Assembly (NCBI GenBank): GCA_046760225.1
Contig: JBHIDR010000020.1
Span: forward strand, 1-14,168
Direction of reading: 5' to 3'
Length of the DNA stretch: 14,168 nucleotides
From: Candidatus Aenigmatarchaeota archaeon
GTDB lineage: Archaea; Aenigmatarchaeota; Aenigmatarchaeia; Aenigmatarchaeales; JACQIB01
Made by a program: the position numbers and the translations under genes. This document shows, piece after piece, positions 9,185 through 14,168 of the stretch; the first letter of the stretch is position 1, and every line of letters begins with the position of its first letter. The notes beneath the pieces were generated by a model. That model saw only the letters and a program-made list of their open reading frames with translations, searched no databases and was not told where the DNA came from.

Positions 9185-9222
9185 TTCTAGGACTTTACTA
9201 ATCATTAAGCCGGTGTAGCGAA

Positions 9223-9253
9223 TGGCTTTGTATTTCGTTACAAGACCCGCGAA
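9223..9253 (+). other. tRNA-Ser intron 1, position 14/15 (31 nt, relaxed BHB)
   Basis: Flanked by a GCGAA direct repeat. Central helix (A)GCG 9217-9220/CGC(G) 9248-9251 pairs 3 of 4; bulges AA|T and AA|G; intron stem GG/CC plus TTTGTA/TACAAG. This was the only one of the six possible registers giving a near-BHB. Confidence 0.8.
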
Positions 9254-9272
9254 GCCAGGTTCAACGCGCCAG

Positions 9273-9310
9273 TTTTCAAGTTTTGAGGCCAATGGCCTGT
9301 GAAAGGCGAC
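9273..9310 (+). other. tRNA-Ser intron 2, position 30/31 (38 nt)
   Basis: Central helix CGCC 9267-9270/GGCG 9305-9308; bulges AG|T and AC|A; intron helix TTTCA/TGAAA; internal hairpin AGGCC-AAT-GGCCT. Confidence 0.9.
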
Positions 9311-9317
9311 ACTTGAG

Positions 9318-9390
9318 AACCTTAGGTTAAATGAATGAATGGCTTGACTCTGAAATGCGGCGGAGGATGTAGAGTCCTTTAAGTCATGAT
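9318..9390 (+). other. tRNA-Ser intron 3, canonical position 37/38 (73 nt)
   Basis: Central helix CTTG 9312-9315/CATG 9385-9388 with one U-U mismatch; bulges AG|A and AT|A; intron stem CTTAGG/TTTAAG. Confidence 0.88.
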
Positions 9391-9422
9391 ATCTGGTGTC
9401 CTTCGGGACGCGCAGGTTCGAA

Positions 9423-9457
9423 GCACTGCCCTCGGTGCACGAGGGTGGAAGCGAAAC
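9423..9457 (+). other. tRNA-Ser intron 4, position 59/60 (35 nt)
   Basis: Exon helix GCAGG/CCTGC; central helix TTCG 9417-9420/CGAA 9452-9455; bulges AA|G and AC|T; internal hairpin CTGCCCTCG/CGAGGGTGG. Confidence 0.93.
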
Positions 9458-9474
9458 TCCTGCCGCCGGCGCCA

Positions 9475-12844: not shown

Positions 12845-13630
12845 ATGAAGGTAAAAATGCTTTCGAAAACCGATAGGGAAATAAAATTTATTGTTGAAGG
12901 CGTGAATGCACAGTTTGTCAATGCCCTCAGAAGGATAGCAATGGCTGAGACACCGGTCCTTGCCATTGATACAGTAGACTTCTACTACAATGACTCTGTT
13001 CTTTATGACGAGATTATTGCACACAGGCTCGGATCCCTGCCGCTTGAGTTCGATATAAAGGCACTTGACCTGAGAGCTGACTGTGACTGCGAAGGAAAGG
13101 GCTGTGCCAACTGCCAGATAGTGCTGGTGATTGACAAGAAAGGCCCGGGAATGGTGTATGCAAAGGACATAAAGTCAGCAGACCCTGAGGTTGCAAAACC
13201 ACTCTATCCTGAGACGCCCATAGTTGAGTTGTTTGAGGGGCAGAAGCTGAAGGCAGAATCAACTGCCATACTTGGCTTCGGGAAGGACCATGCCAAATGG
13301 AGTGCTGCAAGGGCATGGTACAGGAACTACCCGAAAATAACACTGACAGGGAACATAAAGAACCCTGAGGAGGCTGTCAAGGCATGCCCCAAGAACGCAC
13401 TGTCAATAACAGGCAACAAGGTCACAGTAACAGAAGCATGCGACTTATGTGGTGAGTGCGCAAAAGTAGCCCGTCCAATAGGTGTTCTGAAGGTTGGTGG
13501 TGAGCCTGAGAAGTTCATATTCGACATTGAGTCGATCTCAGGGCTTTCAGCTGACAAGATAGTGCTTGCTGCATTGAGCATCCTCAAGAAAAAGGCAAAG
13601 GAATTCGAGAAGCAGACCGGTAAGCTTTAG
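12845..13630 (+). CDS. rpoD: DNA-directed RNA polymerase subunit D (Rpo3) with ferredoxin-like Fe-S insert
   Basis: FVNALRRIAMAETPVLAID...NDSVLYDEIIAHRLGSLPL...GKDHAKW; CP...CDLCGEC insert. SD GAGGTGA upstream. Confidence 0.97.
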   Translation: MKVKMLSKTDREIKFIVEGVNAQFVNALRRIAMAETPVLAIDTVDFYYNDSVLYDEIIAHRLGSLPLEFDIKALDLRADCDCEGKGCANCQIVLVIDKKGPGMVYAKDIKSADPEVAKPLYPETPIVELFEGQKLKAESTAILGFGKDHAKWSAARAWYRNYPKITLTGNIKNPEEAVKACPKNALSITGNKVTVTEACDLCGECAKVARPIGVLKVGGEPEKFIFDIESISGLSADKIVLAALSILKKKAKEFEKQTGKL

Positions 13631-13968
13631 TCGTGGTTGTCCAATTTCACGACCTTGCCTTCCTCTTTCAGCCTTTCCCTCATTTTCCTTTTCCTCTCTT
13701 CATCAGTTATCAGCCTGCTCAGATAGCTTCTGAAATCCTCTACTTCGCCGTGCTCCCCATGGACTGACATGTCCCTGACCTCAGCTTCTGTGTACCTTCC
13801 GTTCCTGACATCAGCCCCGGTCTCGCCCAGGTATATGGGCGTCCTGCCATCGTCGTGGATTCTTGTTGCGATTTTGTCTGCCCTGCTTTTCTCTACAATA
13901 AAGAACCCCCTTTCTCCCTCTTTGGGTTCAGGGCTGTCTGAATCAAGGCTGTACATGACCACTTTCAT
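13627..13968 (-). CDS. hypothetical protein (113 aa)
   Basis: Starts MKVVMYSLDSDSPEPKEGER. GGTG SD-like element and TTTAAATG on the minus strand (13991-13998) upstream. The longer ORF-track version overlaps tRNA-Leu. Confidence 0.65.
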   Translation of the reverse strand: MKVVMYSLDSDSPEPKEGERGFFIVEKSRADKIATRIHDDGRTPIYLGETGADVRNGRYTEAEVRDMSVHGEHGEVEDFRSYLSRLITDEERKRKMRERLKEEGKVVKLDNHD

Positions 13969-13999
13969 ACACCAGAGTAGCGTGCAAAGGCATTTAAAG

Positions 14000-14007
14000 T
14001 TTATAAA
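14000..14007 (+). promoter_or_regulatory. TATA box for the tRNA-Leu transcript
   Basis: TTTATAAA lies 30 nt upstream of G14030. Confidence 0.6.
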
Positions 14008-14048
14008 CTTCTCAACCAAATCTTTTAATGCGGGGAGTTTGCGGGGGT

Positions 14049-14062
14049 ATATAATGCCCCAA
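14049..14062 (+). other. tRNA-Leu intron at 8/9 (14 nt)
   Basis: Exon helix TTTGC 14038-14042/GCAAA 14064-14068; central helix GGGG 14043-14046/CCCC 14057-14060; bulges GT|A and AA|A. Confidence 0.82.
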
Positions 14063-14093
14063 AGCAAAGCCTGGAAACTGCGCAGGGCTTAAG

Positions 14094-14133
14094 CTCACGT
14101 AGCTTAAGAATTGAGCTTATGCTGTGATAAGAA
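14094..14133 (+). other. tRNA-Leu intron at 37/38 (40 nt)
   Basis: Perfect BHB: CAGGG/CCCTG, CTTA 14088-14091/TAAG 14128-14131, bulges AG|C and AA|A, intron helix TCAC/GTGA. Confidence 0.93.
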
Positions 14134-14168
14134 ACCCTGTCCCTTAGTGGGTCCGAGAGTTCAAAGGA

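Follow-up and report, generated by a model that had tools for sequence, protein, structure and literature searches.

An interrupted tRNA-Leu(UAA) gene with introns at 8/9 and 37/38 and a very likely third intron at 59/60 in a small archaeal genome

Genetic organization of the tRNA-Leu(UAA) locus

The analyzed DNA ends within a leucine tRNA gene with the anticodon UAA, which is interrupted by a 14-nt intron at junction 8/9 and a 40-nt intron at 37/38, and very likely by a third cis intron at 59/60 of which the opening three nucleotides are present. The window, that is the whole stretch of 14,168 nt, is the entire contig C20 of a bin of 851 kb (83 contigs, 83% complete). The gene is a genuine leucine tRNA gene of a tiny-genome archaeon. 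With considerable confidence we regard it as the single assembled Leu(UAA) gene of a small-genome DPANN archaeon, giving one precursor with three cis introns, whose 3' exon remained unassembled. What the initial annotation had seen in the sequence letters was confirmed, and its interpretation is supported. The coordinates of all features are compiled in Table 1.

Leucine identity and the UAA anticodon, as assigned initially, are in agreement with the letters of the window, the scan for splicing motifs and the alignment with orthologues. Exon 1 (GCGGGGGTAT) aligns with GCGGGGGT in 8 of 10 orthologues, the remaining two reading GCGGAGGT and GCGGGGAT. Exon 2 reads AGCAAAGCCTGGAAACTGC followed by G, CAGGG and CTTAAG, and 19 of 20 letters of its D arm match the orthologue of genome G017 exactly. 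The variable arm in exon 3 consists of TCCCTTAGTGGGTC and a C and forms a CCC/GGG stem; the exon 3 block TCCCTTAGTGGGTCCGAGAGTTCAAA is the same in the orthologues of G034 and G009. Leu-type 5' parts for UAG, CAG, GAG, CAA and UAA were found in the bin, where the gene described here is the only Leu(UAA) candidate.

The tttataaa motif of the TATA-like box is also present in the orthologues L013 and L014, located 30–32 nt before +1 compared to 41 nt in the C20 gene. This larger distance is due to the 11-nt stretch GCGGGGAGTTT, which adds about 10 nt. The stretch nearly duplicates exon 1 directly upstream of the gene and may be a leader or the trace of a duplication. An alternative 5' end at 14030 (GCGGGGA and G8, with an intron of 25 nt) permits a hand-drawn splicing motif with the same CCCC. 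It was rejected, since nucleotide 8 would then be a G, in disagreement with the GCGGGGGT that 8 of 10 orthologues have in common. A permuted tRNA was rejected as well, because the 3' strand of T stem and acceptor was absent upstream in the window and elsewhere in the bin.

Standard gene finders passed over the locus. ARAGORN reported no tRNA here, neither on the window nor, with the intron option, on the genome. Likewise, no tRNA was found at the locus with Rfam at gathering and E<=10 thresholds, the sole row being a chance match of nos_TCE to an intron hairpin. This silence is expected because the gene is so interrupted and cut off.

Table 1. Features of the window (contig C20) and of further contigs of the same genome (G000)
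Feature	Position	Strand	Remarks
rpoD/Rpb3	12845-13630	+	Pfam RNA_pol_A_bac, RNA_pol_L; upstream of tRNA-Leu(UAA)
113-aa ORF between rpoD and tRNA	13627-13968	-	without Pfam match
TATA-like box TTTATAAA	14000..14007	+	likely archaeal tRNA promoter, judged by sequence
11-nt stretch GCGGGGAGTTT	14030..14040	+	probably 5' leader, from sequence
tRNA-Leu(UAA), 5' part, nt 1-59	14041-14168	+	window letters and orthologue alignment
Exon 1: acceptor 5' strand GCGGGGG and U8	14041..14048	+	U8 = 14048
Intron 1, 14 nt, ATATAATGCCCCAA, junction 8/9	14049..14062	+	strict hBHBh' (4,2,2)
Exon 2: A9, D arm, G26, CAGGG anticodon stem, loop CUUAAG	14063..14093	+	UAA = 14090-92
Intron 2, 40 nt, canonical 37/38	14094..14133	+	strict hBHBh' (4,6,5)
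Exon 3: A38, CCCUG, variable arm, T stem GAGAG, UUCAAA (nt 54-59)	14134..14165	+	A38 and CCCTG 14134-39; variable arm 14140-54; GAGAG 14155-59; TTCAAA 14160-65
GGA, putative opening 3 nt of 59/60 intron	14166..14168	+	contig stops there
tRNA-Ser 59/60 intron, 35 nt, GCACTGCCCTCGGTGCACGAGGGTGGAAGCGAAAC	9423-9457	+	gene about 9210-9474
GGACC-family intron copies	C6:13892, C30:2937, C30:3815, C47:944(-), C71:2122		59/60 of five tRNA genes
tRNA-Ile GAU with 8/9 intron	C12, start 4008	-	acceptor GGGCGGG
tRNA gene with 8/9 intron	C4, start 24830	-	acceptor GGGCGGG
Leu(GAG) gene (L043)	C3:44836-45826	-	991 nt
Tyr(GUA) gene (L044)	C3:24967-25736		693-nt 37/38 intron (ARAGORN)
EndA genes (L020)	C2:22790-23281 and 23822-24355		163 aa and about 177 aa

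Bulge-helix-bulge motifs of introns 1 and 2

In the archaeal bulge-helix-bulge (BHB) motif, each strand of a 4-bp central helix is followed on its 3' side by a bulge of 3 nt, and an outer helix flanks the motif at either end. It is cleaved between the second and the third nucleotide of the bulge. We defined a strict motif (hBHBh') by a 4-bp central helix, two 3-nt bulges and at least 2 bp per outer helix, and scored every placement within the gene region, written as (H,h1,h2). In this exhaustive scan 2 of 5215 placements were strict, namely 14048|14049..14062|14063 and 14093|14094..14133|14134, compared to 15 of 55568 placements in the remaining window. The cuts of both are exactly those which restore colinearity with the orthologues. 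Once both inserts are taken out, the exons can be aligned gaplessly with orthologues in which the 8/9 site is uninterrupted. The 14-nt intron at 8/9 and the canonical intron at 37/38, for which the initial annotation had claimed a perfect BHB, are therefore borne out.

The central helix of intron 1 is formed by its CCCC and G3-G6. It is accompanied by the bulges G7-U8|A and A-A|A9, and G1-C2 is paired with G10-C11. The 9/10 register breaks the motif (3,1,0), and thus 8/9 is the correct one. When the 14-nt insert was shuffled 100000 times, H=4 together with h2>=2 occurred in 0.17% of the shuffles. The outer helices of this intron are minimal with 2 bp each, and RNAfold favours a slipped helix of 7 bp (G4-U10 with A14-C20), in which the 3' bulge is retained and the 5' bulge is lost.

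Intron 2 has the central helix CUUA:UAAG, the bulges A-G|C and A-A|A38 and an inner helix UCAC:GUGA. Each of the 10 aligned orthologues has a homologous intron, in which the blocks CTTAAG and GATAAGAA are conserved.

The interrupted T-loop

Behind TTCAAA the expected U60 and CUCUC are replaced by GGA, after which the contig ends. A break at this point had been described initially and was found again in Logan contigs of two sequencing runs: record 1 of X1 and record 7 of X2 read GGA without differences and continue 20 nt beyond the window, although X1 and X2 are possibly the source samples and their support for GGA is not fully independent. The visible 5' half of the presumed motif comprises the T stem as outer helix, the UUCA strand of the central helix and the bulge A58-A59|G. 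GGA is moreover identical to the opening of the GGACC intron family that occupies 59/60 in five other tRNA genes of this genome.

As the 3' exon is unassembled, we infer the rest of the third intron and the exon behind it. A cis intron at 59/60 is nevertheless very likely in view of the Leu paralogues of the same genome, the GGACC family, the orthologous and public genes and synteny, all described below. It is probably a copy of about 42 nt of the GGACC family. The ending TGAA-NN|T followed by the T stem, which had been predicted for the continuation, is present in the complete 59/60 introns of the G017 and G009 orthologues. Within the GGACC family it is found in 4 of 5 copies, and the fifth ends with TGAG-AA|T.

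Orthologous and public Leu(UAA) genes

A BLAST search with the locus in 40 related genomes yielded Leu(UAA) genes from members of the same taxonomic order, to which two more, from the same family and genus, were added by a motif search. None of the 10 aligned orthologues contains an insert after U8. A longer insert of the G009 gene is located further 3', within the D arm and not at 8/9. The site 59/60 was interrupted in 5 of 13 relatives inspected (G002, G017, G007, G009 and G014) and uninterrupted in 8. The inserts behind TTCAAA measure 71 nt in G002, 53 nt in G017, 19 nt in G007 and 164 nt in G009, and each is followed by T, the 3' strand of the T stem, a CCCCCGC-like acceptor strand and ACCA. 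In G014 the gene is broken at the same site and the contig stops 63 nt later. The Leu(UAA) gene of G001, a member of the same genus, carries the canonical intron only, so that the introns at 8/9 and 59/60 do not represent old, conserved features in this case.

The 164-nt intron of G009 (L007, on its contig C6) and the spacer behind that tRNA contain repeated units of the form ATAAGGGAAGG.GCAGA...CCCTTATCAACCCTT...GAGCATGAAAA. The GAGCATGAAAA ending of these units was also found in the G017 intron.

Public genome contigs were searched with a gapped Leu(UAA) pattern requiring a purine after TTCRAA, which yielded 20 matches. Two of them were discarded, one being a chance match in Roseibium and the other having an intact T-loop. 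The other 18 are Leu(UAA) genes with cis inserts of 11-164 nt at 59/60, with H=4 in 13, H=3 in four and H=2 in one, and h1=5 throughout. They are labelled Aenigmatarchaeota, Woesearchaeota, Nanoarchaeota, Micrarchaeota, 'Methanosarcinales' or simply archaeon; L026, labelled Aenigmatarchaeota, is identical to the orthologue of G017, a genome of the same order.

Three of the 18 (L023, L037 and L041) additionally carry an insert of 29-30 nt exactly at 8/9; a motif with H=4 and h1=2 results only if the insert has the length needed to restore 8|9. L023 (CAYPXA010000008.1) and L037 (JAHJDK010000005.1) are interrupted at 8/9, 37/38 and 59/60, with a BHB at each junction and the 3' exon in cis. As they share the three sites, they are complete public examples of the three-site architecture. 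Their introns show no sequence relationship to those of C20 and are of greater length, with 29-30 nt at 8/9 and with 27 and 162 nt at 59/60; their acceptor reads GCGAGGG. L041 (JBBSVT010000019.1) combines its 30-nt 8/9 insert with an apparent fourth insert (sites 8/9, D loop, 37/38 and 59/60). This is apparently one more than the maximum of three introns per tRNA gene given in the accessible text of a 2014 review.

Repeated introns in other tRNA genes of the genome

All four other Leu genes (UAG, CAG, GAG and CAA) contain 59/60 introns, which range in size from 35 to 56 nt with H=4 and h1=5; the 5-bp T stem forms their outer helix. Two families of T-loop introns could be distinguished. The first, of 35 nt (GCACC...GGAAGCGAAAC), is present in tRNA-Ser, Leu(CAG), Leu(GAG) and a gene on C37, with a variant on C12. 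Use of the same site by the tRNA-Ser of the window, as noted in the initial annotation, is correct: its intron ends with CGAA-AC|T, and compared to the Leu(CAG) and Leu(GAG) copies it shows a compensatory change from T-A to C-G in the hairpin. The second family, of 42-43 nt (GGACCTTTTTGG...TCTGAAAN, starting with GGACC), occupies 59/60 of five tRNA genes, in each case with a BHB of (4,5,4). In total, at least 9 tRNA genes of this 0.85-Mb genome carry repeated T-loop introns.

Introns at 8/9 were found in a tRNA-Ile GAU gene on C12 and in a tRNA gene on C4. Both inserts are identical, 23 nt in length (AGTTCGTGCGAACGGACCCGCAA) and form a BHB of (4,0,6) without an outer exon helix, and both genes have the same acceptor. 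The scan of the genome for 8/9 introns was noisy, so that the statement is limited to these two genes, which were checked by hand. The junction 8/9 had initially been called unusual. The junction itself is upheld, yet the adjective needs tempering, because two other tRNA genes of this genome and three public Leu(UAA) genes use the same site.

Two ORFs were noticed in 37/38 introns on C3. The Leu(GAG) intron contains an ORF of 314 aa with an N-terminal HTH and a LAGLIDADG_3 domain, and the Tyr(GUA) intron a LAGLIDADG_3 ORF of 222 aa. From their domains, both look like homing-endonuclease-like genes in protein-spliced introns.

The contig end and the missing 3' exon

We compared the end of the window with Logan contigs of four runs (X1-X4) from one vent study. 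The reading U60-CUCUC was absent from the contigs of all four. Depth doubles from 14133 onward, which indicates that exon 3 is common to other organisms. Three continuations were found past G14166: the GA of the window with 20 further letters (record 1 of X1, record 7 of X2), a hairpin AAGCTTTTTAGAAAAAAGCTTC (X2), and AACCCTTTCATCC... (X3 and X4). The contig of X3 is identical to the window across 398 nt (13769-14166) before it continues with different sequence. The hairpin found in X2 is a variant of the GGACC-family hairpin with compensatory changes. Two motifs of primer length, taken from the alternative continuations of X2 and X3/X4, were absent from the bin.

The X1 and X2 contigs end 30 nt past the final position at which they deviate from the copies of the GGACC family. 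If the k of the Logan assemblies is 31, as we assume, this length equals k-1, the value that a repeat boundary should give, which is suggestive. The last 12-31 nt of C20 are unique in the bin. Patterns for exon 3 with the T-loop and for the 8/9 intron gave no matches in metagenome contigs, and among the sequencing runs matching the locus there were no RNA runs.

The predicted 3' exon (T-CTCTC-CCCCCGC-A) was absent from the 83%-complete bin even when one mismatch or G-U pairs were allowed. This search matched only noise in coding sequences and, on C3, the Leu(GAG) 3' exon, which fits its own GCGGGAG acceptor. Gene order offers an indication of where the exon may lie. Several orthologues are followed by rpl18e-rpl13-rps9. 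The rpl18e of this genome is located at the end of contig C72, whose reverse complement begins with CCA, 12 nt and ATG, and this spacing equals the one after ...GCACCA in the relatives. Spacing and synteny make it most likely that the missing piece falls into a short gap between C20 and C72 that was left unassembled, and we propose on these grounds that the tRNA gene sits between rpoD and rpl18e.

Splicing enzymes and proposed processing

Genes for a splicing endonuclease and an RNA ligase are both present in the genome. Contig C2 has two matches to PF01974, with scores of 85 and 66 bits, and C35 one to PF01139 (RtcB) with 497 bits. Of 17 genomes of the order, 14 contain the EndA pair; in the present genome an ORF of 189 aa lies between its two members. 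Among solved structures, the longer, alpha-like EndA best matches 3iey_A (E 4e-35), which we take to be the catalytic subunit of the N. equitans EndA. The EndA sequences compared were those of L020 and of 28 loci of relatives. In the alpha-like EndA the motif AH[NT]IRA[NHQ]ML is conserved in all 17 sequences of the order. Where the M. jannaschii EndA (RKK) has its presumed catalytic Lys, an Ala is aligned, and Tyr and His are retained. The beta-like paralogue is without the His as well.

According to the proposed mechanism a single precursor would be transcribed with introns of 14 nt at 8/9 and 40 nt at 37/38 and a further one at 59/60. Each intron would fold locally with its flanking exon into a BHB, and the three motifs would form without overlap: intron 1 would pair with nt 3-6 of the acceptor, intron 2 with nt 32-35 of the anticodon loop and intron 3 with nt 54-57 of the T-loop. 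Cleavage within the bulges would be due to the two-subunit EndA, and ligation of the exons to RtcB. The contig would stop 3 nt into intron 3 as the assembly graph branches there, with the gene itself continuing.

Alternative explanations

A split tRNA would provide nt 1-59 as a 5' piece, with a transcript ending soon after GGA, and nt 60-76 as a 3' piece encoded elsewhere and joined through a trans BHB. The absence of the 3' exon from the bin would fit this arrangement, which is known from the DPANN archaeon N. equitans (PMC3218864, PMC4090602), the species whose EndA type best matches the alpha-like gene. However, all 22 complete Leu genes interrupted at 59/60 are cis genes (four paralogues of this genome and 18 public genes including four same-order orthologues), and the rpl18e contig opens with CCA at the spacing of a cis gene. 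The split sites reported in the accessible text of PMC4090602 and PMC3218864 are 25/26, 29/30, 30/31, 32/33 and 37/38, with 59/60 not among them. We consider a split gene improbable. An assembly artefact at the contig tip has an equally small chance. The T-loop would then be intact, and GGA would be mis-joined from the intron of another tRNA gene sharing GTTCAAA. Such a mis-joining is conceivable given that the break consists of 3 nt only and contig tips are error-prone, that GTTCAAAGGA is present in four other tRNA genes of the bin, and that depth is doubled over exon 3. Against this, the X1 and X2 assemblies, possibly from the source samples, read GGA and 20 further nt, and the diverging contigs of X2, X3 and X4 leave after G14166 into other non-tRNA sequence, none of them reading T-CTCTC.

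The least probable of these readings, by a small margin, is a decaying pseudogene or non-functional 5' remnant of a tRNA-Leu(UAA). Heavy interruption, the unseen 3' end and the odd near-duplicate of exon 1 would all be compatible with decay. Yet the locus is the sole Leu(UAA) candidate in the bin, its exons are near-identical to those of the orthologues, both complete introns have a strict BHB, and promoter box and rpoD/rpl18e position are retained. A single cis gene with three introns thus stays our preferred explanation. Only tentatively would we go further and suggest that its 59/60 site has been caught in active intron turnover, a reading which is based on the divergent X3 continuation, the variant hairpin of the GGACC type, the two families in at least 9 genes and the G001 Leu(UAA) gene without any such intron. 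If true, the locus would give a population-level snapshot of mobile BHB introns that move from one T-loop to another within a DPANN lineage. According to the accessible text of PMC4033280, snapshots of this type are needed to work out the gain of tRNA introns.

Implications and comparison with known systems

The locus provides a checkable case of a tRNA gene that is wholly overlooked by standard finders. Genes of this kind would explain 'incomplete' tRNA sets of DPANN bins, in line with Kaneta et al. 2018, where, in the accessible text, incomplete DPANN tRNA sets point to unidentified disrupted genes (PMC5829648). For annotation, a search that is aware of BHB motifs and of synteny (rpoD-tRNALeu-rpl18e) should recover missing decoders. 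In this lineage the T-loop site 59/60, and to a lesser degree 8/9, appear to be recurrent landing sites for short repeated BHB introns, and these repeats would break assemblies right inside tRNA genes. The repeated families together with the contrast within one genus offer material on the evolution of intron gain.

The closest parallel is found in the Thermoproteales (Pyrobaculum, Thermofilum). As far as the accessible text of three articles goes, up to three BHB introns per tRNA gene occur there, near-identical introns in different tRNAs are read as intron transposition, and such multi-intron and non-canonical-site features are also noted for ARMAN and N. equitans (PMC4033280, PMC4090602, PMC3218864). 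Our genome resembles the Thermoproteales in having several protein-spliced introns per tRNA, canonical and non-canonical sites including 59/60, and repeated introns. It differs in being a DPANN-type genome of 0.85 Mb rather than a member of the Crenarchaeota, and in an EndA alpha subunit of the N. equitans instead of the crenarchaeal type. The non-canonical sites named in the accessible text of PMC4090602 are 3/4, 20/21, 22/23, 25/26, 29/30, 30/31, 45/46, 53/54, 56/57 and 59/60, followed by 'etc.'; 8/9 is not named in this open-ended list. A literature search by title and abstract likewise found no archaeal tRNA intron at positions 8 and 9.

With ARMAN-1/2, N. equitans and other DPANN archaea, which have disrupted tRNA genes and an EndA of broad specificity, the genome shares the DPANN lineage, a raised level of tRNA disruption and genes that are missed by standard tools. 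Its EndA is encoded by two separate genes of about 165-177 aa conserved across the order, unlike the three-unit epsilon2 enzyme of ARMAN. The split tRNA genes of N. equitans and Caldivirga are similar with respect to the BHB at the junction, the two-subunit endonuclease and the small-genome archaeon as host, whereas the complete relatives of the gene described here are all cis. Genes for tRNAs with many interruptions are an established peculiarity of archaea, and the Leu(UAA) gene of C20 is a good example of it and not a new kind.
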